64,000 nt of DNA, taken from assembly GCA_963816355.1 (NCBI GenBank), contig CAWFKH010000001.1, positions 64,001-128,000 of the forward strand, written 5' to 3'. Under the pieces are notes generated by a model that saw only the letters and a list, made by a program, of their open reading frames with translations, was not told where the DNA came from and did not search any database. Below, in pieces: positions 10,289 through 54,581 of the stretch. Position 1 is the stretch's first letter. The number at the start of each line of letters is the position of its first letter. The translations under genes were made by a program, and so were the position numbers. This DNA is from an uncultured Gemmatimonadales bacterium (GTDB taxonomy: Bacteria > Gemmatimonadota > Gemmatimonadetes > Longimicrobiales > RSA9).

Positions 10289-11641
10289 TCAGCTCGAGGC
10301 GCGGCGGACGGCGCGCGAGAGCGGCCAGCTGGCGGCGAGGACGGCGAGCACGACGAGGGTGTTGGCGGGCTCGCCGGCGGCGACGGTGACGAGCAGGGCG
10401 AGCGCGACGGCGAGGGCGAGCGCGGGGACGGCGGGGTAGCCGCGAGCGCGGTAGGGGCGCGGCGCCTCGGGCTCGCGACGTCGCAGGACGAAGAGGGCGG
10501 CGAAGCAGAAGACGTAGCGGACGACGATCAGGATCGCGGTCAGCCCGAGGACGACGGTGAAGGAGCCGGTGAGCAGGAAGCCGGCGATGACGAGCAGCGT
10601 CAGGACGAGGGCGACTTCGGGCGTGCCGCCGCGGTTGACCTGGGCGGCGCGCTCGAGGAAGAGGCCGTCGCGGCTCATGGCGAGGAGCAGGCGCGGGATC
10701 TCGATGAGGATCGCGTTGAGGGTGCCGAGGACGGAGACGACGATGACGAGGCGGATGACGAAGTCGCCGCGGGCGCCGAAGAGGGCGCGGGCGAGGGTGC
10801 CGCCGACGAAGGGGTCGCGGGCCATGGTGGCGACGGGGAGCACGGCGAGGTAGGCGGCGTTGACGACGAGGTAGATGGCGATGATGACCCAGACGCCGCG
10901 GAACAGCGAGCGCGGGATCTCGCGGGCGGGGTCGCGCATCTCCTCGCTGCAGTAGACGACGGCGAAGTAGTTCTCGTAGGAGAAGATGACGCCCTGCATC
11001 GCGACGCCGAAGGCGACGAGCAGGGGCAGGCCGTGGGGGAGCGCGAGCGGGGGCGCGGCCACGGCGGGGTGCGGCAGGACGAAGGCGGCGACGACCAGGC
11101 CGAGCAGGGCGAGCGCCTTGAGGAGCGTGGTGAGCTCCTGGATGCGGCCGCCGGTGCGGACGCCGATCCACTGCAGCGCGGCGAGGCCGCCCAGGGTGGC
11201 GAAGCCGACGACGGCGGCGTGTCCCTGCAGCTGCGGAAGGAGGCCGCCCGCGTACTCGCCCACGATGAGCAGCAGCGCGACGCCGCCGAGGCAGAGCGTG
11301 ATCCAGTCCGTGTAGCCGATGAAGAAGCCGACGCCGTCGCCGAAGGCGCGCCGCGCGAAGACGTACGGCCCGCCCGCTCGCGGCATCATCGTCGCCAGCT
11401 CCGCGAAGATGTTGGCGCCGAGCAGCGTGTTGATCGCGCCGAACACCCAGACGGCCATGAAGAGCGCCGCGCTCGGCAGCGCCGCCGCCACCTCGCCGGG
11501 GGTGCGCGCGATGCCGCCGCCGATCGCGGCGCCTACCGTGATGGCGAGGCCGAAGGCGGTGCCGAGGACGCGGAGGAGGGCGCCGGGGCGGCCGGGGCGG
11601 GGCGGGCGGACGATCGCCGGAGGCTCGGAGGCGGGTTGCAC
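10289..11641 (-). CDS. APC-family amino acid permease
   Basis: VGAAIGGGI, ELATMMPRAGGPYVF, SEEMRDPAREIPRS, PRLLLAMSRDG, RPYRARGYP; about 12 TM segments. Confidence 0.92.
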   Translation of the reverse strand: MQPASEPPAIVRPPRPGRPGALLRVLGTAFGLAITVGAAIGGGIARTPGEVAAALPSAALFMAVWVFGAINTLLGANIFAELATMMPRAGGPYVFARRAFGDGVGFFIGYTDWITLCLGGVALLLIVGEYAGGLLPQLQGHAAVVGFATLGGLAALQWIGVRTGGRIQELTTLLKALALLGLVVAAFVLPHPAVAAPPLALPHGLPLLVAFGVAMQGVIFSYENYFAVVYCSEEMRDPAREIPRSLFRGVWVIIAIYLVVNAAYLAVLPVATMARDPFVGGTLARALFGARGDFVIRLVIVVSVLGTLNAILIEIPRLLLAMSRDGLFLERAAQVNRGGTPEVALVLTLLVIAGFLLTGSFTVVLGLTAILIVVRYVFCFAALFVLRRREPEAPRPYRARGYPAVPALALAVALALLVTVAAGEPANTLVVLAVLAASWPLSRAVRRASS

Positions 11642-11680
11642 CGGCGCAAGATGATCGGGCGCCGGTCGCGGCGCAACGGC
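11469..11680. repeat. 212-bp direct repeat, copy 1 (permease 5' end plus upstream region)
   Basis: Matches 12475-12686 with one substitution seen (CCGGGGCGG vs CCGGGACGG). Confidence 0.93.
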
Positions 11681-11787
11681 GTGGGGAACGTCTGGGCGCG
11701 GAGCGGCGCGGCGGGGGCGCCGACCAGGGCGAGGGCGGCGAGCGCCACCATCGTCATGGTCGGCGCTCGTGCGTGTGCCGTTCTCAT
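11681..11787 (-). pseudogene. Truncated 5' end of a secreted protein gene (signal peptide ending AQTFPT)
   Basis: GGGAGGG RBS, then MRTAHARAPTMTMVALAALALVGAPAAPLRA-QTFPT, which runs into the repeat and loses coding character. Confidence 0.6.
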
Positions 11788-12260
11788 CGTGATCCCTCCC
11801 GCTGACGAACTTCGGCTATGGGCCTGAGCGTCACATCGACGGCGACGCTGTCCCACGGCGGGCCCACGCGAAAGCTCACGCCTGGAACGATCGAGCTGTC
11901 CGGGCGAAGTGCCTGGTCCGGCGCGGGATCGAACCTCACTTTTATGCAGTCGTGTCGCTCGAAGGTACGCAATAGCACGCTGAATCGACCATCGACCCCG
12001 GTCGGCCTTGAGGCGGTTTCGTCCGACGACGCCATACACGTGCCATCGAGCGCAAAGACAGACACGCTTGCAGATGATACCGGACTTCCACCCGTATCGG
12101 TAACGACGCCGTAGACTACAATGCCGGGCGTGGGGAACGTGTCCACTAGTGTATCGCAAGCTCCCGTTGAAACAGCCGCGACGAGTGATGCCGCCCCCAG
12201 AAAGACCCGGCGCCTTCTCACCACGCTTCGAGCGGGAATCCCATTTTTAAGACTTGCCAA
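11784..12260 (-). CDS. Hypothetical lipoprotein with carboxypeptidase-regulatory-like (beta-sandwich) domain
   Basis: Lipobox-like TGAC; VYGVVTDTGGSPVSSASV...TGVDGRF pattern; visibly lower GC; start uncertain. Confidence 0.65.
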   Translation of the reverse strand: MASLKNGIPARSVVRRRRVFLGAASLVAAVSTGACDTLVDTFPTPGIVVYGVVTDTGGSPVSSASVSVFALDGTCMASSDETASRPTGVDGRFSVLLRTFERHDCIKVRFDPAPDQALRPDSSIVPGVSFRVGPPWDSVAVDVTLRPIAEVRQREGSR

Positions 12261-12474
12261 CTTGCACCTCGTGGTTGACGATACACGAACTTCTCGACGT
12301 CAGCGCCACCAGGTCATACTGCTGCGTCATCCGCACGGCATCCTGCCGTCGGCGTCCGGTACTTGCAAACCGGGTTGCGGGCGTTTCACCGTGCACCTGT
12401 CCGCATCGTTCGCGGCCGATTCCCGTCGCCCGTTCTGCGCAACCCATAAGTAGCGCAAGCTTGTCATATCCTCT

Positions 12475-12686
12475 GCGCTCGGCAGCGCCGCCGCCACCTC
12501 GCCGGGGGTGCGCGCGATGCCGCCGCCGATCGCGGCGCCTACCGTGATGGCGAGGCCGAAGGCGGTGCCGAGGACGCGGAGGAGGGCGCCGGGACGGCCG
12601 GGGCGGGGCGGGCGGACGATCGCCGGAGGCTCGGAGGCGGGTTGCACCGGCGCAAGATGATCGGGCGCCGGTCGCGGCGCAACGGC
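12475..12686. repeat. 212-bp direct repeat, copy 2 (orphan 5' fragment of the permease)
   Basis: Near-identical to 11469-11680; ORF 12327..12710 carries the same VQPASEPPAIV...AALPSA peptide and then diverges. Confidence 0.93.
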
Positions 12687-12778
12687 AACCCTTTTGAAAC
12701 TTTGCGCCATCCCACACGAAAGGAGCGGAGGGCTCTCGCTCCCGCTCGCGCGTGTTCCCGGTCGCCGCCTGGATGTGC

Positions 12779-15512: not shown

Positions 15513-18185
15513 CTACCGCGTCTCGATCCCCTTCGCGACCGTCACCTCCAGCGTGCGCTCCATCTTCACGCCGCCGTACGTGAGCGTGACGGTGTACTTC
15601 CCCCCCGCCACGAACAGCCGCCCCTCGCCGCCATACGCCGTCAGCACGTCCGACGTCGGCTTGAGGTCCCACCACACGCGGCCCAGCCCCGGCACGCCGG
15701 GCGCCGAGAGGTTTGCGACAGGGACGCCGTCGGCGTCCGTGATCGCCAGCGCGACGTCCGCCCCCGTGTACGCCTTCACCCAGAAGTCGAGCGGCACGCC
15801 CTCCGGCGGGTTCTCGCCGCGATAGACGGCGCCGCCGTTCCAGTCGGCGAAGCCGGCCTGGCGGTTGGTGCCGAACGCGGCCGGCGGCTGGAAGAGGTAC
15901 GCCGCCGAGTCGCGCACGGCGGCGGTCAGCTCCTCGAGCGGCCGCACGTCGTCGACGATGTAGAGGGAGCGGCCGTGCGTCGCGATCACGAGGTCCCGCT
16001 CCTCCGGCTGCAGCTCGATGTCGTCCACGGCGACCGTGGGCAGCCCGCCGAAGCGGACCCAGTGGGAGCCGCCATCGCCGCTCGCGAAGAGGCCGAACAT
16101 GGTGCCGACGTAGAGGAGATCGGGATTGAAGCGGTCCTCGGCGACGACCTCGATCGGGCCGTCCGCCGGCAGGTCGCCCGCCACCGAGCGCCAGCTCCTG
16201 CCGCCGTCCGCCGTGCGCCAGAGCAGCGGCCGGTCGTCGCCGCTGCGGTACGCGGAGACGGCCACGTAGGCGACGTCGGGCGACGTCACGCTCGGCGCGA
16301 TGCGCTGGATCCAGCGCCCCTTCGCGTCCGCGGGCAGCGACGCCGTGAGGTCGGTCCAGTGCGCGCCGTCGTCGCGCGTGATCCACAGCTTGCCGTCGTC
16401 CGTGCCCGCCCACAGCTCGCCCGCCTGCACCGGCGACTCCGCCAGCGCGTAGACGACGCCGTACGTCTCGGCGCCGCTCCCCGTCGCCGTGATGCGGTCG
16501 ACGTTCTGCGTGGAGAGGTCGGGGCTGATGGGACGCGAGCGCTCGCCGTCGTCCGTCAGCTTGAAGACGCGGTTGCCGGCCAGGTACATCGCGTCCGGGT
16601 CGTGCACGCTGCCGATCAGCGGCGCGTTCCAGTGGAAGCGGTAGGCGGGTTGGCCCTCCGCCGGGCTCGGCTGCAGGAACTTCTCCTCGCCGGTGGCGAG
16701 GTCGTAGCGGTAGACGGTGCCGCCCTGGCTCTCGGTGAAGACGTGATCCGGGTTCCGGCCGAAGACGCAGTAGAAGCCGTCGCCGCCGTCGATCGGCTTC
16801 CAGTCCGAGTTGCGGATCCCCTCCTGCGAGTCGGTCTGGCTCGGGCCCACCCAGTTGATGTTGTCCTGCAGGCCGCCGCAGATGCGGTAGTGCGGCTTCA
16901 TCGAATCGAGCGAGATCCGGTAGAACTCGCCGCCCGCGAAGCGGTTCAGGTGCGCCCACAGCGCGCCGCCGTCCCAGCTCTGGTAGATGCCGCCGTCGGT
17001 GCCCAGCAGCAGGTGCCGCGGGTCGTGCGCGTCGATCGCCAGCGCGTGGTTGTCCGGGTGCACCTTGGAGAAGCGGTCCTCGCGCCACGTGCGGCCGCCG
17101 TTCTCCGACACGTGCACCATCGACGTCAGCTCGTAGACGCGGTCCGGGTCCGACGGATCGACGCGGATCTGGCTGAAGTAGAACGCGCGTGCGTCCAGCG
17201 CGCTCCGCCGTGTCCACGTCGCGCCGCCGTCGTCGGAACGGAAGACGCCGCCCTCCTTGCTCCGCACCTCGTCGATCGAGATCGGGCCGCCCGCGTCCGT
17301 CTCCACGATCGCGTACACGATGCGCGGGTCCTTCGGATAGACCGCGAGTCCGATGCGGCGCGTGCCGGAAGGCAGCCCGCCGCCCAGCTTCGTCCAGTGC
17401 GCGCCGCCGTCCGTCGACTTGAAGATCCCGCCGAGGTCCTTCCCCTCGGTGGCGGCCGGCCCGGCGGTGAAGGACCACGGCGTGCGCCGGCGCGCGTACA
17501 GCGCCGCGTACACGGTCGAAGGGTCCTGAGGATCGATGGCGACGTCGCCCGCGCCGACGCGGTCGTCGTACGGCGCCGGCGCGGCGAGCACCTTCGTCCA
17601 CGTCGCGCCGCCATCCGTCGTGCGGTACAGGCCGCGCTCGCGGCTCGCCTGCCACAGGTCACCGACCGCCGCCACGTAGGCCGTCTTCGGGTCCGTGGGG
17701 GAGACGACGATGCGCGCGATGCTCTTCGTCCCCTCCAGCCCCACGTGCGTCCACGTCGCGCCCGCGTCCGCCGAACGGTAGACGCCGTTCCCCCACTGCG
17801 AGCTGTTGCGGTCGTTCGCCTCGCCCGTCCCCACCCACACCACACTCGAGTCCGACGGCGCCACCGCCACCGCCCCGATCGACGCCACCGGCTGGCCGGT
17901 GAAGATCGCCGAGAACGTCGCGCCGCCGTCCGTCGTCTTCATCACGCCGCCCGTCCCCAGCCCCACGTAGAACGTCTGCGGATCCGTCGGGTCCAGCGCG
18001 ATGTCCGACACCCGACCGCCCATCACCGCCGGCCCGATCGCCCGCGCCTTCAGCGCGGAGATCGCGAGGGAGTCGAGCGCGGCGGGCTTCGCGGCCGCCT
18101 GCGCGTGGAGGGCGCCGGCGCCCGGCGCCAGCAGGGCGGCCGCGGCGAACAGCAGCGCGGCGGCCGTATTCGACCGTTTGTGCAT
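15513..18185 (-). CDS. Secreted VPS10/BNR-repeat beta-propeller protein (glycosyl hydrolase-like)
   Basis: Signal peptide MHKRSNTAAALLF; RAIGPAVMGGRV, many SxDGGxTW Asp-boxes, GGLQDN, GGDGF, ATHGRS. Confidence 0.9.
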   Translation of the reverse strand: MHKRSNTAAALLFAAAALLAPGAGALHAQAAAKPAALDSLAISALKARAIGPAVMGGRVSDIALDPTDPQTFYVGLGTGGVMKTTDGGATFSAIFTGQPVASIGAVAVAPSDSSVVWVGTGEANDRNSSQWGNGVYRSADAGATWTHVGLEGTKSIARIVVSPTDPKTAYVAAVGDLWQASRERGLYRTTDGGATWTKVLAAPAPYDDRVGAGDVAIDPQDPSTVYAALYARRRTPWSFTAGPAATEGKDLGGIFKSTDGGAHWTKLGGGLPSGTRRIGLAVYPKDPRIVYAIVETDAGGPISIDEVRSKEGGVFRSDDGGATWTRRSALDARAFYFSQIRVDPSDPDRVYELTSMVHVSENGGRTWREDRFSKVHPDNHALAIDAHDPRHLLLGTDGGIYQSWDGGALWAHLNRFAGGEFYRISLDSMKPHYRICGGLQDNINWVGPSQTDSQEGIRNSDWKPIDGGDGFYCVFGRNPDHVFTESQGGTVYRYDLATGEEKFLQPSPAEGQPAYRFHWNAPLIGSVHDPDAMYLAGNRVFKLTDDGERSRPISPDLSTQNVDRITATGSGAETYGVVYALAESPVQAGELWAGTDDGKLWITRDDGAHWTDLTASLPADAKGRWIQRIAPSVTSPDVAYVAVSAYRSGDDRPLLWRTADGGRSWRSVAGDLPADGPIEVVAEDRFNPDLLYVGTMFGLFASGDGGSHWVRFGGLPTVAVDDIELQPEERDLVIATHGRSLYIVDDVRPLEELTAAVRDSAAYLFQPPAAFGTNRQAGFADWNGGAVYRGENPPEGVPLDFWVKAYTGADVALAITDADGVPVANLSAPGVPGLGRVWWDLKPTSDVLTAYGGEGRLFVAGGKYTVTLTYGGVKMERTLEVTVAKGIETR

Positions 18186-18431: not shown

Positions 18432-18818
18432 ATGTCGGTCGAGCGCACGCGAGAAGTGCTGGAGTCGTACTGGCGCGAGCACGACCCCCGCCACGTCGCC
18501 GAGGATGCCGTGTTCGTCATGCAGCCCACCGGCGAGGAGATCCGCGGCCGCGACGCGATCGCCGAGCACCTCGACGCGTTCTACCACGTCACGCTCGACG
18601 CGCACGCCGAAGTGGTCAACGCCATCTTCGCCGACGGCAAGGGCGTGCTCGAGGCGGTCGTCGTCGGCAGGCACACGGGGGAGTTCGCCGGGATCCCCGC
18701 CACGGGCCGTGACGTGCGGGTCCCGCTCTGCGTCTGCTACGACATGGAGGGAGAGCGCATCCAGCGCGCGCGCATCTACCTCATGGCGAACGTGCTGATC
18801 CAGCAGATCTCGGGGTGA
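18432..18818 (+). CDS. SnoaL-like / NTF2-fold ester cyclase
   Basis: GRDAI, GRHTGEFAGIPATGRDV motifs; GGAGG RBS. Confidence 0.88.
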   Translation: MSVERTREVLESYWREHDPRHVAEDAVFVMQPTGEEIRGRDAIAEHLDAFYHVTLDAHAEVVNAIFADGKGVLEAVVVGRHTGEFAGIPATGRDVRVPLCVCYDMEGERIQRARIYLMANVLIQQISG

Positions 18819-21714
18819 GCCGCGGCCAGACGTTGTCGTCCGGATCGGCGTCGGGAAAGCGGCCGTGCGGATCGAGCGTGACCTTCTCGACCGCGCGGCC
18901 GCCGAAGTCGAGCACCGCGTCGTAGGTGCGGCGGCCGCCGAACCAGACGTCCACCGGCCAGCGGACCTCCGCCGTCGTCGCATCGATCATGGTGCTGTTC
19001 GGCATCGGCCGGATGGCGGGGCCGGTGGGCGCGAGCTCGACGCGCAGCACGATCGGCGCGGGCATCTGTCCGTCCTGGCGCACGGTGACGGTGGTGCGGC
19101 CGCCGGCGCTCGCCACGCGCTGGATGGAGCCGTCCACGGCGTCCGTCGTGAAGAGCCAGGAGTACCAGAACCAGCCGAGGTCGCGGTGCAGCGCGCGGCT
19201 CATGAAGAAGGCGTAGTCCCACGGCGAGGGGTGCTTGAACCGCCACGCGCGCGCGTAGTCGCTCATGGCGCGCAGGACGGCGGTGTCGCCCACGATGCCC
19301 CCGAGCATGGACAGCATCATCGGCGCCTTGCCGTACGCCTTGAACGCGTAGAGCGGGCCGGCGTAGTTGCCGTCCCACATGAGCGGCGCCTCGCGCTCGT
19401 CGCCGCTGGTGCGGCCGTAGGCCTGGCCGCGGCCGTCGAGCGAGGGGATGTCGCCGCCGGCGTCGAGCGGCGGCGCCTCGCCGCGGCGGTCGACGGCGGA
19501 GAGGATGTTCATGTACTGGTTGAACCCCTCGTCCATGAAGCCGTACCACGTCTCGTTGGTGCCCACCATCATCGGCCACCACTGGTGGCCGGTCTCGTGG
19601 TCGGCGGCGCCGGTGCTCGACATGATGAACATCGGGTACTCCATGCCGCCCTCGGGTCCGTCCACGACGGTCATCTTCGGGAACGCGTACGGCATCCACA
19701 GCTTCGAGTAGAAGCCGAGTGCGTGCCGCACCACCGCGCCCGCGCTCGCGTAGCGCTGCGCGTGCCCCGGCAGGTAGAGGATGTCGACCGGGACGAAGCC
19801 GCGGCCCGGGATCGGCGCGCGCGTCGCGTCCCAGACGAAGCGGTCCGAGGCGGCCCAGGCGACGTCGGCCACGCTGTCCGCGACGAAGTGCCACACGAGC
19901 CGGCCGCCCGCCGCCGTCGCGCGCTCCGCGCCGCGCCCTTCAGGGGCGACGATGCTGCGCTGTTCGTCGGACTCGAGCGCGTGCGACAGCCGCTCGCGAA
20001 CGCCGGGCGAGAGCACCTCCTCCGGATTCTGCAGCACGCCCGTCGCCCCCACCAGCCAGCCCGCGGGGACGTCGATCTTCACGTCGAAGCGGCCGAAGTC
20101 GTTGTAGAACTCGGCGGTCCCGAGGTACGGGTCCGTGTCCCAGCCACGCAGGTCGTCGTAGACCGCGACGCGCGGGTACCACTGCGCCACCTGGAAGAGC
20201 GTGTCCGCCCAGGCGCCCATGCGCAGACCGCGCTCGTTGAACGCGCGCGGCACCTGGAAGCTCCACTCCGCCTGCATGCGGCCGGTGCCGTGCGCCGCGA
20301 TCGGCGTCGGCAGCGGGATGCGGGCCGACGTCTCGGTGATCGCGCTGGCGATCGGCGTGCCGAAGCGGCGGCCGCCGCGCCCGACGTACGGCGGCACGGT
20401 GTCCGTCAGATCCACCGCCTGACCGTTCAGCACCAGCCGCTTCAGCTCCAGGCCGCCGGTGATCTCCGTCACTTTCTCCGCGCGCGCCACGTTCGCGCGG
20501 AAGACGTTCTGGTCCAGCCGCAGCACGATCTGCGACAGCGTCGAATCGCTCTCGTTGTGGATCACCACGTCCTCGCGCCCCGTCAGCGTGCGCGTGGCCG
20601 GTTCCAGGCGCGCCTCGATCGCGTACTCGGTGCGCAGCTGCCAGTACCGCGGGCCGGGTCGCCCCGTGGAGTCGCGCGTGCCGGCGGCGAACGCGCGCCG
20701 GATCATGTCCGTCATCGGGATCTCCCGGCGGATCGCGCGCGCCGGCGCCGCGAACGCCTCGCCCTGCGACGACGCCCCACCGGCCGCGCCGGCGCCGCCC
20801 AGCACGCGGTTCAGCAGGTCCGCCAGACGGTAGCCCGCGAGCGCCGCCCGCCGCTCCGCCGTCGCGAACGCCGCCTCCCGGTACGCCGCCCCCGGCTCCC
20901 GCCCCGGCGGCGTGTCGTAGATCGTCTTCGCGATGCCGTAGCTCTCGTTGGCCCACGCGGCGAAGTCGCCCGGCTCCAGCTCGCCGGCGACGTCGGCCGG
21001 GGTCACGCGCGCCGTGATGCCGCGGGCGGCTCGCTCCAGCCGGTGCGCCTGCAGCTCCCCCGGCTGCGTCGGGTACGCGCGCGAGATGCCCGAATCCCAG
21101 TAGCCGTGGAGGTTGTGGCGGTCGGCGAGGCGGAACAGGTTGCCGCCGCGGTCGCCTTCGGGGAGGGCGGGCGTCACGCGCGAGACGGCGTGGAGCGGCT
21201 GGTGGATGTCGCCGACCAGGTGGAGGATCCAGGCGAGGTCGACGGCGCGCCGCGAAGCGGAGACGCTTTCGTCGCCCAGCTCGGCGCTGAGCCGCTCCAG
21301 CTCGCTCACCGCGTTCACGGGATCCGGCGCCGGTTCGGCCAGGTCCACCGGGCCGCGCGGCGTCGCGCGGAAGTAGTGGTCGATGTAGTGCCAGCCGCCG
21401 TGCGCGTACTTCTCGAAACGTCGCCTCTTCGTGGTGTCGCGCACCACGTCGGGCCACGTCGCGGCGGCCGCGAAGTAGAGCCAGTCGCCGTCGGCGGAAG
21501 CGCCTTGCCGCGCGCGCAGATCGAGGAGTCCCGAGTCGTCGGGCGCCTGGCTCAGGAGCGCGAGCGCGGCGCGACGCGCCCGCGGCGTCATCCGCTCCCA
21601 CGCGATGCGGGCGATCACCTCGTGCCCGGTGGCATCCCACGCCCCCGCCGGCGTGGCGATCAGCAGGCCGAGCAGCAGCGCGGCGGTCCAGCGCTTCGAT
21701 GTGCGAACGGGCAT
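18781..21714 (-). CDS. Secreted fusion: S1/P1 nuclease + M1-family metalloaminopeptidase
   Basis: Signal peptide, then WDATGH, ATWPD, WHYID, LHLVGDIHQPLH, GDRGGN, NLHGYWD (S1/P1). After a Gly/Ala linker: AQWYPR, GGMEYP, HETGH-x18-E, YGK (M1). One uninterrupted ORF. Confidence 0.88.
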   Translation of the reverse strand: MPVRTSKRWTAALLLGLLIATPAGAWDATGHEVIARIAWERMTPRARRAALALLSQAPDDSGLLDLRARQGASADGDWLYFAAAATWPDVVRDTTKRRRFEKYAHGGWHYIDHYFRATPRGPVDLAEPAPDPVNAVSELERLSAELGDESVSASRRAVDLAWILHLVGDIHQPLHAVSRVTPALPEGDRGGNLFRLADRHNLHGYWDSGISRAYPTQPGELQAHRLERAARGITARVTPADVAGELEPGDFAAWANESYGIAKTIYDTPPGREPGAAYREAAFATAERRAALAGYRLADLLNRVLGGAGAAGGASSQGEAFAAPARAIRREIPMTDMIRRAFAAGTRDSTGRPGPRYWQLRTEYAIEARLEPATRTLTGREDVVIHNESDSTLSQIVLRLDQNVFRANVARAEKVTEITGGLELKRLVLNGQAVDLTDTVPPYVGRGGRRFGTPIASAITETSARIPLPTPIAAHGTGRMQAEWSFQVPRAFNERGLRMGAWADTLFQVAQWYPRVAVYDDLRGWDTDPYLGTAEFYNDFGRFDVKIDVPAGWLVGATGVLQNPEEVLSPGVRERLSHALESDEQRSIVAPEGRGAERATAAGGRLVWHFVADSVADVAWAASDRFVWDATRAPIPGRGFVPVDILYLPGHAQRYASAGAVVRHALGFYSKLWMPYAFPKMTVVDGPEGGMEYPMFIMSSTGAADHETGHQWWPMMVGTNETWYGFMDEGFNQYMNILSAVDRRGEAPPLDAGGDIPSLDGRGQAYGRTSGDEREAPLMWDGNYAGPLYAFKAYGKAPMMLSMLGGIVGDTAVLRAMSDYARAWRFKHPSPWDYAFFMSRALHRDLGWFWYSWLFTTDAVDGSIQRVASAGGRTTVTVRQDGQMPAPIVLRVELAPTGPAIRPMPNSTMIDATTAEVRWPVDVWFGGRRTYDAVLDFGGRAVEKVTLDPHGRFPDADPDDNVWPRLTPRSAGSARSP

Positions 21715-21846
21715 GCGTGGTCCTCGCGACGGTGGGCGGACGGAGCTCGATCCGGATTCGATCCGGCGCCCCGCTGCGGCGCCCGCGACCCGGCGCCCGA
21801 ACTCTGCGTGCTGCGCGCCGATCCGTCAACGCCGGCCACGGCGCGC

Positions 21847-21896
21847 GGCGCCCGCGTCAGCCGCCGGGCGCCCGCGTCAGTCATTCGGCGCCCGCG
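21847..21896. repeat. 20-bp-period repeat GGCGCCCGCG(TCAG) x3 over the ChaN stop
   Basis: Copies at 21847, 21867 and 21887. Confidence 0.7.
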
Positions 21897-22881
21897 AACG
21901 TCGACATTCGATCGACTCCAGCGTGCGCGCCTCGTCGGTCTGGATCACGAAGTCCGCCCACTGCCCCGCCGGCGCGGGCTCGAACGTCTCCACGTCCTTC
22001 ACGGGTCGCAGCGCCACGACCAGGGATTTCGCGTTCGGGGCGTACGCCCGGAGCTGTTCCGGGATCCCGGTGCCGCGCTCCACGTGGAACGCGCCCGTCA
22101 CGTGCAGCACCAGGGCGTCCGGGTGCGCGTCCAGGTGGCGCGCGATCGAATGCGCCATCGTCGCATCCCACAGGACCTGGCTGTCGAGCTGACGGCCCAT
22201 GTTCCCGTGGCTGCCCACGGGCGCCGACGCGTGCGCCACCGGCACGCCGCACTTCATCCCCTCCTGCTCCATCACCTCCGAGATCGTCGCGATCCACTGA
22301 TCCCGGTACGCCTGCGACGCCTGGCCGTACGGCAGCGGCGGCAGGTAGGCGAGCGCCGCCGGGCTCAGCTCCGTCAACGCCTCGCGGCCCCGCCGCGCGA
22401 CCAGCGTCACGTAGCGCCGCGGCGCGTTCGCCGCGATCACCGGCATGCCGCGCTCCTTCGCGAGCTCGACCAGCGGCCGGTAGTCGCTCTCGTAGCGCTC
22501 CCACGGCCGCGCATCGGCGAGGAACGAGGCCTCCGGGATGAGACCCGCCAGGTACTCGTCCAGCGGCAGTTGCACGTCCCGCTCGAAGAACTCCAGCGAC
22601 AGCGCCACAGGTCGCGCGCCGGCGACCGCCCTCCGCAGCAGCTCCAGCTCGAGCATGTGCGCCGTCGGGTCGTCGTGCGTCTCCCCGACGAAGACCACCT
22701 GCACGCGCTCCATGGCGCGCGCGATGTCGTCCAGCGACGCCGCCCCGCCCGCTCCCGTGTGCACCCGGTATTCGCCCGGCGCGTACGCGGTGTCGAGCGC
22801 GGCGGGCGCCTTCTGCGCCGAAGCCGGAAGTGCGCACAGGAGCGGGAGCGTCCCCGCTGCGAGCATCGTCGTGGTCCTCAT
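21877..22881 (-). CDS. ChaN-family (heme/iron-uptake-associated, DUF399) protein
   Basis: VVFVGETHDDP, LSLEFFERDVQ, YRPLVELAK, IAANAPR, WDATMA, GAFH; ATG 22881 with purine-rich RBS. Confidence 0.85.
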   Translation of the reverse strand: MRTTTMLAAGTLPLLCALPASAQKAPAALDTAYAPGEYRVHTGAGGAASLDDIARAMERVQVVFVGETHDDPTAHMLELELLRRAVAGARPVALSLEFFERDVQLPLDEYLAGLIPEASFLADARPWERYESDYRPLVELAKERGMPVIAANAPRRYVTLVARRGREALTELSPAALAYLPPLPYGQASQAYRDQWIATISEVMEQEGMKCGVPVAHASAPVGSHGNMGRQLDSQVLWDATMAHSIARHLDAHPDALVLHVTGAFHVERGTGIPEQLRAYAPNAKSLVVALRPVKDVETFEPAPAGQWADFVIQTDEARTLESIECRRSRAPND

Positions 22882-28737: not shown

Positions 28738-28772
28738 GCGCAAGCGCGAGGCCGCCGGATCAGGGCGGCGTC
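28738..28772. repeat. 35-bp direct repeat, left copy
   Basis: GCGCAAGCGCGAGGCCGCCGGATCAGGGCGGCGTC; recurs at 32599-32636 with one extra GCC. Confidence 0.85.
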
Positions 28773-31700
28773 AGTGAGAACACCGCGTCGCGGCTGACGA
28801 CGCTGCCGGCGACGTTCCTGGCCAGGAGCTGGAAGCGCGTGGTCGCGGCAGGGACGGGCCGGTACACGTAGTAGTAGACGAAATCGGCGGCGGCGGGGCC
28901 GCTCGAGAGCTGGACGTGCACGTCGGCCGGCAGGCTTCCGTAGCGGCCTATCGGCATGGCGGGCACGAGTTGCGTCCACGGCTGGCGCGGGTGCTCGGCG
29001 TCGCCGTCGAAGACGCGGAGGAAGAGCTCGTCGGCCCACGACGTCGTGACCTGCAGCCGCAGCTCCGTCACCCCTTGCAGGGGCGCGAGCGACACCGCTT
29101 CGGCGAACGCCATCGCCGCCGGATCGAACAGGAGGAGCACCGGCACTGGCGGGGGGCTGAGCGTCCGGACATCGGCGATGAGGGCGTACTCGCTCAGGCT
29201 CGCGATCTTGTGCTCCCCGTCGGCACCGTCGTCGAAGCCGACCGGTACATCCACGGAGGCCTTGCTCAGCCAGTCGTTCGGATTGAACCAGGGGAAGCCG
29301 GGGTTGTCGAACTCGATGCCGGCGGCGGTGAGGAGAAGATGCGAGTCGGGCTTGAAGCTGCCTTGGAGGGGAGGCGCGTCGAGGCGGACATGGTCGCCGG
29401 CAGCGGCCTGGATGAAGATCTTCCTGCGGCCGACGGCGGTGTAGTAGTCGTCCGTCGAGAGGCGGTCGACGGAGAGCCAGTACTGGAGCTCGCCTGGACC
29501 GACCGGATCGAAGTCGCGGAAGACTTCCACTCGCGGGGCGGAGACCTCGAGTCGTTTCGGGACATGCTGGATGGGGACATCGGCGCTCGCAACCCGGTTG
29601 CGCAGGCCGACGTGCGCCGTGAGCGCGTGGTCGTCGTCGTGCAGCCGGAGCGTGGTGCCGGCGACGCCGAGCGGGATGCCCCACTCGCGCTCGTCGGCCC
29701 AGTCTCCACTCTGGCGTTTAAGAACCGTCGCCTCGACGGCTCCGAGGAGGCCAGCGGCGGTGTGCACCTCGAACCTCACATCGAAGCTCTCGTCGTCGCC
29801 GGCGGACTCCGGCAAGTACAGGGACGTGGTCCACGGACCGCCGCCGAGAGGCACCACCGCGCCGGAATCGATCGCGGCGACGGCGGGGTCGGCGTGCGGC
29901 CGCAGGGCGAAGGGGGCGCGTCCGATTTCGCCGCCGTCGACGAGGGCGACGACGTCGAAGCGGCGGCCATCGGCGAGCGCGGCCAGCGGATCCGACTGGG
30001 GGTCGCGTGAGGCTCCGCCCTTGGAACCGGTCCCGGCCTGCACCTCGAAGCTGTCGAAGGAGACGACGAGCCAATCGAGGTCCTCGGCGCCCAGGGTGGC
30101 ACGGTCGAAGACGAAGTCGACGTCCACCATCGCGCCGGTGGCGGTGACCACGTTGGGGCGGCCGTTCGCCGCGGCGGTCATCTGGCCCAGACCCGTCCGA
30201 TCGTCGACGCGGACCGAGGCGGCGAAGGTGCCGAGATCGAGGACGAACAGCTGGAACTCGGCCTCGAGGGTCTCGCGCGTGAGCGGGTAGGCCGCCGGCT
30301 CGCCATCGGGAGTGGCGGACTGCCCGCGGGCCCGCCCCGCGCGCTCGCGGCCCAGGCCCTCGAACAGGATTTCGAGCAGGACGCCGCCGCAGCCGCGCGG
30401 CGTCTTCGGCCGCCAGTATTCGAGGCGTGCGGCACCCTCAATGTGCAGCCGGCCGACGCGGTCGACGTCGTGCGCGGCCGTGTCCCCTAGCAGCGTCGAC
30501 GAGAGCTCGAGCAGCACCGGGCGCGGGTGTGTCGGCGGGCGCAGCGTGGCACCGTCGAAGTGATCGCGCTCGGTCGCCCCCGGCGCGCCGGCCGGGCCGG
30601 GGAGATCGATCAGCGTACGCGTCTCCTGCATGCTGAGCACCTGCGCGGGGCCGCCGGGCAGGCCATCGTGCTCGGTGGAAAGCGTGTACTGGAGGTGAAG
30701 CACCGGCAGCCCGAGCTCCGGACTCTCGCGTCGTTCTCCGCGCAATCGCCGCAGAACCTCCGCAAGGCCGGACTGCAGGTACGCCATCCAGCGGGCGAAC
30801 GGCTTCTCTTGGTCGTTCAGCCGGAGCTGCAGCGGCCGGAACTCGAAGCCCTCGCGCGGCACGACCTCGTGACTCAGCCGGGCGCCCGCGCGGCCGTGCT
30901 GGGCGAGCCGCTCGAAGTCAATCTCGAGGCGGAGTGATCCGGGTTCGTCGGGGTCCGGCGCCACGGCGATCCGGCCGTAGCGCACGAAACGGTCGGCGGC
31001 GCGCTGGATGTCGATCCCTCGCGGCAGGTCCAGGACAGCGAGGAGGTTCATGGGCAAGAGCGTCGAGGGCAGGACCGGGTCGCGCCACCGCGCCTCCGTG
31101 ATGAGACGGGTCACGAGGTTGAGGCCGACGCCGAGTGCTGCCTGGTCGGCGGCAGTGGCCGGGAACGCCGCGTCGTCGAGCAGGATCGGCAGTCCGAAGA
31201 GGATTGCGAGCGGCAGCGTTAACATCTGCGGATCGATCGCACCCGACACCGCCGCCGCGACCGCCTGCTCCAGAGCTGCTCTTCCAGCGAACCGGGTATC
31301 CGCGTCGACCACCACATCGGTGCTCCAGTCGAGGCGGCTGGCGCGAACTCGTGGCAGGAAGAAGACGGTCACGGTCAGGCTGTGGATCTCGATGTCGGGG
31401 CCGTCGATCACCTTGACCTCCGGCACGCCGGCGTCGACCGACTCGAGCGTGAGGCTCGCCGCCACCGCAGGTCTGCCGGACCGCTCCACGACCCGCAGAT
31501 CGAGCGCCCCGATCCCGCGCGCGGGATCCACGGCGAGATTCTGCGCGATCGCGATCTGAGTGAGCCCAAGTGCGAAGGCGGCCGGAAGCGTCCAGAGCCC
31601 GAGGAAGGGGAGGGCGAGTAGTGCCAGCGCCTCGAACGGCAGCGGAGCGTTCTCGTCGATGGCGTTCGCCGCGAACTCGCCGACGACCACCGGCAACTCG

Positions 31701-32533
31701 ATGGGCACCTCGGCGCGGGCGCCGAGCGCCCGCAACAGCGGTTGCACGAACGGCGGCAATGAGATCTCCGTTCGGCCAGCGTTCAGATACGCCGCGAAGC
31801 CGCCGGCTCCGCCGCCGAACTTAAGGCGGCGGTCGACGATCTCGACGTGGCCGGCGTCGGACCACGGTGCATCCGTGAACCAGCGGGGATAGTCGATCAC
31901 GCCGTCGGGCGGGAAGCCGATGTACGCCGTCACCGGCACGGGGAACGTACCGAACCGCTCGCCGCCCGCGACGGGCGTCGTGCTGTTGAACATTAGATAG
32001 GCGGAGCCGCTGGCTCCCTGCAGGTCGGCGAAGAATGCGGAGGACGCCGCGCGAATGCTCGCTTCGTCGCTCAACGCGCGCGTGCCGTCCGGCTGGTGCA
32101 GCGGAAGCTGGCTCCGCTCCGCCTCATCGTAGTCCGAAGACGGCGGATCGAAGCGGATCTCGACGCCCCGGCCGGGATCAACGCTCAGCCCTTCGCCGAC
32201 GAGGATCACGAAATAATTGTAGCTGCCGCCCCCGGGGGGCGCCTGCCACGCGTCGGGCTGATTGATGACGCTCTCCGGCCCGTTGAGGTCCGGCACATCG
32301 ACCGGGTCGGACGCGGGGAAAGCGCGCTTCCGTACACGATAGCGGGGCCGCCACGCCCTCAGCGGCGCGGCGTCGAAGAACGCCGCCACCGCGCTCGCGA
32401 GCGTGTCGTTCCAGAGACCCTGGCGCACCATCAGGTCGAGAAGGTGGAGCGCCGGATCGGAGGACGAGAACGCGTTGCCGGCGAGCAGGTCGGCGACCGG
32501 CCGCAGGACGCTCGACGGGATGTGTCGTTGCAT
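28760..32533 (-). CDS. Large hypothetical protein (1257 aa), no recognised family
   Basis: Long ORF with natural amino-acid composition; GAGGGGG RBS; more A/T-ending codons than neighbours. Confidence 0.85.
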   Translation of the reverse strand: MQRHIPSSVLRPVADLLAGNAFSSSDPALHLLDLMVRQGLWNDTLASAVAAFFDAAPLRAWRPRYRVRKRAFPASDPVDVPDLNGPESVINQPDAWQAPPGGGSYNYFVILVGEGLSVDPGRGVEIRFDPPSSDYDEAERSQLPLHQPDGTRALSDEASIRAASSAFFADLQGASGSAYLMFNSTTPVAGGERFGTFPVPVTAYIGFPPDGVIDYPRWFTDAPWSDAGHVEIVDRRLKFGGGAGGFAAYLNAGRTEISLPPFVQPLLRALGARAEVPIELPVVVGEFAANAIDENAPLPFEALALLALPFLGLWTLPAAFALGLTQIAIAQNLAVDPARGIGALDLRVVERSGRPAVAASLTLESVDAGVPEVKVIDGPDIEIHSLTVTVFFLPRVRASRLDWSTDVVVDADTRFAGRAALEQAVAAAVSGAIDPQMLTLPLAILFGLPILLDDAAFPATAADQAALGVGLNLVTRLITEARWRDPVLPSTLLPMNLLAVLDLPRGIDIQRAADRFVRYGRIAVAPDPDEPGSLRLEIDFERLAQHGRAGARLSHEVVPREGFEFRPLQLRLNDQEKPFARWMAYLQSGLAEVLRRLRGERRESPELGLPVLHLQYTLSTEHDGLPGGPAQVLSMQETRTLIDLPGPAGAPGATERDHFDGATLRPPTHPRPVLLELSSTLLGDTAAHDVDRVGRLHIEGAARLEYWRPKTPRGCGGVLLEILFEGLGRERAGRARGQSATPDGEPAAYPLTRETLEAEFQLFVLDLGTFAASVRVDDRTGLGQMTAAANGRPNVVTATGAMVDVDFVFDRATLGAEDLDWLVVSFDSFEVQAGTGSKGGASRDPQSDPLAALADGRRFDVVALVDGGEIGRAPFALRPHADPAVAAIDSGAVVPLGGGPWTTSLYLPESAGDDESFDVRFEVHTAAGLLGAVEATVLKRQSGDWADEREWGIPLGVAGTTLRLHDDDHALTAHVGLRNRVASADVPIQHVPKRLEVSAPRVEVFRDFDPVGPGELQYWLSVDRLSTDDYYTAVGRRKIFIQAAAGDHVRLDAPPLQGSFKPDSHLLLTAAGIEFDNPGFPWFNPNDWLSKASVDVPVGFDDGADGEHKIASLSEYALIADVRTLSPPPVPVLLLFDPAAMAFAEAVSLAPLQGVTELRLQVTTSWADELFLRVFDGDAEHPRQPWTQLVPAMPIGRYGSLPADVHVQLSSGPAAADFVYYYVYRPVPAATTRFQLLARNVAGSVVSRDAVFSLTPP

Positions 32534-53610: not shown

Positions 53611-54040
53611 CTCGCCGGGGCGGCGAGGGAAGCTCGCCCTGGCGGCGAGGGAAGCTCGCCTGGCGGCGAGGGGAGCTTCGCCTGGCGGCGAAGGGAAGCT
53701 CGCCTGGCGGCGAGGGGCCGCCTTCGGCGGGGAAGCTCGCCTGGCGGCGAGGGGCCGCCTTCGGCGGGGAAGCTCGCCTGGCGGCGAGGGGCCGCCTCCG
53801 GCGGGGAGGCTCGCCTGGCGGCGAGGGGCCGCCTTCGGCGGGGAAGCTCGCCTGGCGGCGAGGGGCCGCCTTCGGCGGGGAAGCTCGCCTGGCGGCGAGG
53901 GGCCGCCTCCGGCGGGGAGGCTCGCCTGGCGGCGAGGGGCCGCCTTCGGCGGGGAAGCTCGCCTGGCGGCGAGGGGCCGCCTCCGGCGGGGAGGCTCGCC
54001 TGGCGGCGAGGGGCCGCCTTCGGCGGGGAAGCTCGCCTGG
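53611..54040. repeat. Hairpin array A: 4 short single-hairpin units plus 9 x 37-bp tandem units
   Basis: Unit CTCGCCTGGCGGCGAGGGGCCGCCTTCGGCGGGGAAG starting at 53699, 53736 ... 53995; partial copy at 54032. Confidence 0.95.
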
Positions 54041-54056
54041 CAGCGGTCAGGGCCCG

Positions 54057-54581
54057 GGGCTTCCCTCGCGAAGCGAGCCTCCCCGGCCGAAGGCCGACCC
54101 CCGCGCGCAGCGCGGACCCCGCCGCAAGGCGGGCTTCCCTCGCGAAGCGAGCTTCCCCGGCCGAAGGCCGGCCCCCGCGCGCAACGCGGACCCCGCCGCA
54201 AGGCGGGCTTCCCTCGCGAAGCGAGCTTCCCCGGCCGAAGGCCGGCCCCCGCGCGCAACGCAGACCCCGCCGCAAGGCGGGCTTCCCTCGCGAAGCGAGC
54301 TTCCCCGGCCGAAGGCCGGCCCCCGCGCGCAACGCGGACCCCGCCGCAAGGCGGGCTTCCCTCGCGAAGCGAGCTTCCCCGGCCGAAGGCCGGCCCCCGC
54401 GCGCAACGCGGACCCCGCCGCAAGGCGGGCTTCCCTCGCGAAGCGAGCTTCCCCGGCCGAAGGCCGGCCCCCGCGCGCAACGCGGACCCCGCCGCAAGGC
54501 GGGCTTCCCTCGCGAAGCGAGCTTCCCCGGCCGAAGGCCGGCTCCCCTTGCCGAAGGCAAGCTTCCCCGGCCGGAGACCGG
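54057..54581. repeat. Hairpin array B: 6 x 74-bp tandem units plus partial and degenerate hairpins
   Basis: Unit GGGCTTCCCTCGCGAAGCGAGCTTCCCCGGCCGAAGGCCGGCCCCCGCGCGCAACGCGGACCCCGCCGCAAGGC at 54057, 54131, 54205, 54279, 54353, 54427; partial at 54501. Confidence 0.95.

Follow-up and report, generated by a model that had tools for sequence, protein, structure and literature searches.

A probable fusion of an S1/P1 nuclease and an M1-type peptidase, predicted to be exported and found in a single genome

Does one gene of this bacterium really encode two complete secreted zinc hydrolases in a single chain, and if so, does their joining serve a purpose? The question is raised by an open frame on the minus strand at 18781-21714 of the window, the 64,000-nucleotide stretch of DNA that was analysed here, which comes from a genome assembled in 6 contigs (3.85 Mb, 72% GC, 97.5% complete). 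A sequence-only reading had described a 977-aa protein with one signal peptide, an S1/P1 nuclease domain, a linker and an M1 peptidase. This anatomy was confirmed in the assembly: a single frame runs for 977 codons from an ATG without internal stops, and every motif quoted lies at its expected place (WDATGH at residue 26, HLVGDIHQPLH at 165, NLHGYWD at 201, GGAGAAGGASS at 306, GGMEYP at 689, HETGH at 706 and DEG at 728). The features are collected in Table 1. The signal peptide matches those of stand-alone S1 relatives in position and kind, and the 10-residue C-terminal tail has a codon adaptation of 0.077. A scan for promoters and terminators found none for the fusion gene. The S1 and M1 halves were modelled apart, and a joint full-length alignment, in which the S1 rows were misplaced (14-19% identity), was left out.

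Table 1. Features of the 977-codon frame, in window coordinates.
Feature	Residues	Position	Strand	Basis or remark
Shine-Dalgarno-like GAGGA, 6 nt 5' of the fusion ATG		21721..21725	-	Sequence; putative function
Predicted Sec signal peptide	1-25	21640..21714	-	Read from sequence: basic n-region, hydrophobic core, A-G-A then Trp26
S1/P1 nuclease domain, complete	26-305	20800..21639	-	Pfam, zinc ligands, predicted fold
Gly/Ala linker (21 residues) with the junction inside	306-326	20737..20799	-	Codon adaptation
M1-type zinc peptidase, complete, without a signal peptide of its own	327-967	18814..20736	-	63-83% identity to stand-alone orthologues of relatives
GGMEY exopeptidase-type motif	689-693	19636..19650	-	Canonical form GXMEN
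HExxH-x18-E zinc motif	H706, E707, H710, E729	19528..19599	-	Invariant 20/20
Likely oxyanion-hole tyrosine (putative role)	Y794	19333..19335	-	Invariant 20/20
10-residue tail and stop		18781..18813	-	Within a 38-nt overlap with the 3' end of a convergent SnoaL-like gene

The nuclease half matches PF02265 from profile position 1 to 257 of 258 (residues 26-305, E 1.5e-45, 156.5 bits against a curated cut-off of 29.5). It holds all nine zinc ligands (W26, H31, D89, H109, H165, D169, H175, H203 and D207), together with the complementary Arg R92 and the nucleoside-site residues Y110, D112, R189 and N192. Nine zinc ligands, with an N-terminal Trp that coordinates through its main chain, are likewise described in passages of a report on SmNuc1 (PMC11705217). 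The model of this half (pLDDT 97) has the all-alpha S1/P1 fold, and its top Foldseek matches are S1/P1 nucleases only, SmNuc1 being the best (E 1.6e-9), with TBN1, P1 and S1 also among them. In a leave-one-out profile the fused domain scored 336.6 bits, compared with 332-358 for 29 stand-alone relatives, and it keeps 39 of 40 conserved columns; the sole miss is the start Met, which lies outside the domain. The source genome has one copy of the S1 gene.

Assignment of the C-terminal half rests on motifs, profile search and fold, because its PF01433 match (residues 706-853), although significant (E 1.4e-5), scores 25.2 bits and so falls below the curated cut-off of 27.7, and because an NCBIfam scan of the 977-aa protein gave no matches. 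Two close relatives are narrowly above the Pfam cut-off (P0019, 31.2 bits; P0026, 35.1 bits). Residues H706, E707, H710, E729, E692 and Y794 are invariant in the 20 aligned M1 sequences, as are M, E and Y of GGMEY, in which Tyr takes the place of Asn across the subfamily; in the profile search this motif aligns to AGAMEN. The marks of the M1 family, as given in passages of PMC12190285, are HEXXH-x18-E and GXMEN. In puromycin-sensitive aminopeptidase, the residue aligned with Y794 is the Tyr of 'Ysk'. The best matches in the profile search are all M1 enzymes, and the model (pLDDT 78) has ERAP1 as its best fold match (E 4.3e-22); 207 PDB entries matched at E<=0.001, and those listed are all M1 enzymes, with TM of about 0.5-0.58. 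Motifs and model thus point to an M1-type peptidase, presumably one with aminopeptidase activity. Its subfamily is secreted and belongs to Gemmatimonadota and Bacteroidota, and no biochemical study of this subfamily was found in the literature searched. The gene of the closest orthologue (L049, G012:C2:1342848-1344783; 78-83% identity) is broken by a frame change in its assembly, and it carries a lipoprotein-like leader of its own.

The fused peptidase keeps 305 of 315 conserved columns (0.968), the highest value among 11 close sequences (the others keep 0.899-0.965). A pseudogene, or decay of either half, was rejected on this column conservation, on that of the S1 half and on the S1 leave-one-out score. 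Five further full-length, stand-alone M1-type paralogues with signal-like N-termini are present in the source genome, and given these, the fate of the fused copy is probably under little constraint here.

We then considered how the two halves meet. In stand-alone S1 relatives the stop codon comes about 3-18 codons after the last helix of the domain (17 loci and 29 loci in two overlapping sets, the larger of which includes one locus from an unpublished genome, G136, on which no claim depends by itself), and every stand-alone M1 orthologue whose 5' end lay inside the fetched locus starts with its own signal peptide. In the fusion, the last S1 helix leads through 21 Gly/Ala-rich residues into the conserved peptidase start, and no hydrophobic signal peptide occurs over 20601-21000 in any of the three frames checked. 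With no such signal in any of the three, two ordinary genes could not give the fusion through a wrongly called base or stop between them. The linker has the codon adaptation of ordinary coding sequence (0.796, against a genome in-frame median of 0.778); of 5000 off-frame windows 0.14% come up to this value, as do 0.16% of 5000 base shuffles. These two grounds led us to reject both a single-base error and read-through across an intergenic gap. The junction is unique sequence and contains no repeat, and a repeat-mediated join was also rejected.

Within the linker, A-S-S-Q317 lies 9 residues N-terminal to a conserved Arg, and several orthologues show that cleavage-site spacing (range 4-23); the comparison covers 41 sequences, near-duplicates included, and the pattern is a permissive one in a Gly/Ala-rich linker. 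This gives a weak hint that A-S-S-Q317 could be the remnant of an M1 signal-peptidase site, which would place the join inside the peptidase's signal peptide. The sequence-only reading had offered a recent deletion-fusion as one origin. The junction does have the look of two coding sequences joined by deletion or recombination; 'recent' is undatable, because the family search gave no second genome of the genus.

We believe that the frame is probably a real, lineage-restricted, in-frame S1+M1 fusion, predicted to be exported, with two zinc sites that would work independently and without coupling. A deletion or non-homologous recombination would have taken out the nuclease stop together with the peptidase start and its hydrophobic signal, so that the last S1 helix would run on into the variable N-terminal tail of the peptidase. 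The S1 signal peptide would lead the whole chain through Sec, and cleavage would free Trp26, whose main chain would complete the three-zinc site. The nuclease is expected to cut RNA and single-stranded DNA to 5'-nucleotides, with 3'-nucleotidase action at the first site, and the peptidase to trim residues off peptide N-termini; both activities, periplasmic or extracellular, would serve nutrient salvage. Such a join would be tolerated because the nuclease-first order leaves Trp26 free, and because peptidases of this kind accept N-terminal tails of varied length. Against this reading stands the absence of a precursor arrangement, S1 beside M1, from the relatives examined.

An assembly chimera or a collapsed deletion, with genes that are separate in the organism and joined in the consensus, would account for a protein whose 90% cluster has one member. 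One DNA run (X1), with a 0.05 share, and no RNA run were found; its contig pieces are short and give no evidence either way. Identical pieces lie on both sides of the gene (17060-17552 and 22641-22862) and inside S1 (21395-21558), which shows that sequence of this kind exists; none of them bridges the join. The earlier reading had proposed read support at the linker as a check, with a stop or frameshift there as the refuting result: neither a read nor a contig was found across the junction, and the one-base explanation has been excluded as set out above. The consensus is imperfect and contains some pseudogenes or leftover errors, with 3 of 109 genes split by a frame change in comparison with a complete relative, and stops inside the match in 6 of the 109 (2 well inside, 4 near an end). 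Apparently artefactual M1 fusions also occur in the protein collection: four other long M1 proteins (P0020, P0025, P0034 and P0035) look on inspection like frameshift or chimera artefacts. A chimera would nevertheless need to keep the frame and to hit the exact boundary between two complete domains, at a place of unique sequence within a 654,889-base contig, and we consider it unlikely.

How widely is the pairing distributed? From the S1 side, one search gave 17 other proteins (537-1710 aa) and another, with a 57-sequence profile, gave 23 (575-2000 aa); none carries PF01433, with about 7990 candidates scored in each. From the M1 side, 149 proteins of 824-2350 aa were found, and among the 120 listed only the present fusion (P0001) has PF02265. 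None of the best 150 of 7130 matches among 1.84 billion representatives covers both halves; this search can hide fused forms, because the fusion itself is missing among its listed matches. No fused S1+M1 gene was found in the genomes of 60 relatives, in 72 genomes of the family (9 with S1) or in 400 genomes of the order (61 with S1), nor, with a junction-spanning query against 400 genomes of the phylum, among the 150 of 596 matches listed. Six ambiguous matches to the junction query proved to be stand-alone genes, and in five genomes the long frames that surround S1 (888-1217 codons) are extended upstream of it, not downstream. An atlas search gave stand-alone M1 clusters only.

Relatives carry S1 and M1 as separate, unlinked genes, and none of their fetched loci has the two side by side. 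The claim that both enzymes normally stand alone is therefore borne out by the relatives' separate genes. A literature search, whose coverage ended short of subscription journals and supplements, found nothing relevant on S1/P1 + M1 pairing, and the passages of PMC3482391 that came up concern Het-C, not this pairing. The earlier statement that the architecture is not known as a described one thus agrees with the proteins, genomes and literature searched.

Gene order around the fusion is not conserved: in 9 M1-orthologue and 9 S1 regions, only one contained any neighbour from the window (a 34% BNR paralogue). A ChaN/TIKI-family gene (21877-22875, minus strand) lies 162 nt upstream of the fusion on the same strand, a pairing unseen in relatives, and the two may be on a common transcript. 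Elsewhere in the window, a 212-nt direct repeat (11469-11680 and 12475-12686, one mismatch) flanks 794 nt of lower GC (0.63) that include a 158-codon lipoprotein-like ORF (11784-12260, minus strand). The repeat copies the 5' portion of a permease-like gene (10289-11641, minus strand; family judged from the translation), whose original start is likely now at 12710, and the arrangement at 11469-12686 looks like an insertion into the 5' end of that gene. This is one of 8 close near-exact repeats of such kind in the genome. A 1257-codon ORF at 28760-32533 (minus strand), in a stretch of slightly lower GC, has no Pfam matches, and a cluster of short-period tandem repeats with spacings of 74, 111, 148 and 222 nt occupies 53809-54547 (G000:C1:117809-118547).

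Both families are found in other fusions. The 23 other long S1 matches include 16 with a PF04185 phosphoesterase, 2 with PF03372 and 1 with a PF03767 acid phosphatase; BON or DUF4440 are further partners. The PF04185 form (P0002-P0015 and P0287-P0290) is a recurrent secreted protein that measures about 600 aa and occurs in 16 clusters, among them some with the label Thermoanaerobaculia, and is plausibly a nuclease-plus-phosphatase enzyme of phosphorus salvage. In P0019 and P0021-P0024 the M1 subfamily has a fusion partner, either SnoaL at the C-terminus (853 aa, 25 members) or a metzincin (about 1500 aa, 4 clusters); the window's convergent SnoaL gene has a faint likeness to the M1-fused SnoaL (25%, E 0.03). 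The S1+M1 protein, which has been seen once, thus combines in a new way two modules that are both prone to fusion, and it follows the pattern of other S1-first fusions.

These fusions bear on a further possibility, that of a selected bifunctional scavenger, a tethered enzyme that takes nucleic acid and peptide off the same dead-cell debris and so yields phosphorus, nitrogen and carbon. Both predicted active sites are intact, fusions of S1 to other hydrolases of salvage recur, and an unrelated protein that is also a cluster of one (P0294) combines a C-terminal S1 domain with an M28 peptidase that lies far upstream. Nevertheless, there is no second example of S1+M1, the two genes are not neighbours in the relatives examined, and the recurrent S1 partners are phosphatases that act on the nuclease's own product, as an aminopeptidase does not. 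Moreover, M1 enzymes trim short peptides and would not alone open nucleoprotein. The purpose-built nucleoprotein scavenger of the sequence-only reading is not upheld by these observations, and we regard selection for a joint function as rather improbable.

The gene might alternatively give two products, either the exported fusion together with a peptidase that starts internally at Met334 and stays in the cytoplasm, or two enzymes from a linker clipped after export. GGGAG lies 6 nt 5' of the in-frame Met334 ATG and is created by Glu331, and none of the 31 other N-termini listed has Glu at that position; as for clipping, the linker is Gly/Ala-rich and contains A-S-S-Q. This is very improbable, since Asp to Glu is a conservative one-base change, a start at Met334 would lose the conserved RAIRR stretch, and signal peptidase requires a membrane anchor that is absent here. 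That S1+M1 is a rare but established family missed by our searches is barely credible: the word-based searches scored about 8000 candidates each and the genome searches 3-13 per genome, fused forms can hide behind stand-alone representatives and the M1-side matches listed were 120 of 149, yet P0001 was the sole S1+M1 protein returned, whether the search began from S1, from M1 or from the junction.

If the fusion is real, as we favour, nature here provides a clean example of two complete zinc hydrolases, both secreted, in one chain, and with it a test of whether joins of this sort bring a benefit or are neutral. S1+M1, known from a single gene of a single genome, does not amount to a defined system. 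Were the scavenger reading true, an undescribed series of S1/P1-first 'salvage fusions' would extend from phosphatases to peptidases. The S1+phosphoesterase fusion, with its 16 clusters, is a better-supported lead than S1+M1 on bacterial phosphorus salvage from extracellular nucleic acid.

Compared with known systems, the fused S1 domain has the fold of SmNuc1 of Stenotrophomonas maltophilia (PDB 8QJL-8QJQ, 9EMG), P1 (1AK0) and S1 (5FB9), with TM of about 0.62-0.71 by query length, and has in common with them the nine zinc ligands, the complementary Arg, the nucleoside site and a mature N-terminal Trp. It is about 28% identical to SmNuc1, has no cysteine and thus neither of the two SmNuc1 disulfides, and has Asp112 where SmNuc1 has Asn91. 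Unlike these nucleases, it is followed by a 670-residue peptidase. That half shares HEXXH-x18-E, GXME, the conserved Tyr and the order of a beta and then a catalytic domain with ERAP1, puromycin-sensitive aminopeptidase, tricorn factor F3 and E. coli PepN, but reads GGMEY where they read GXMEN, has about 640 residues to their 780-960, and in its model ends in a beta domain without the large helical C-terminal domain; identity to solved M1 structures is 10-14%. The closest likeness in layout is to the S1 fusions with PF04185, PF03767 or PF03372, which also have a signal peptide, S1 first, a short linker and a second hydrolase last, and in the PF04185 forms the S1 domain is of the same subfamily (38-42% identity). 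S1+PF04185 recurs in many assemblies and would make up a nuclease-then-phosphatase pathway, whereas the partner in the present fusion is a peptidase, found once.
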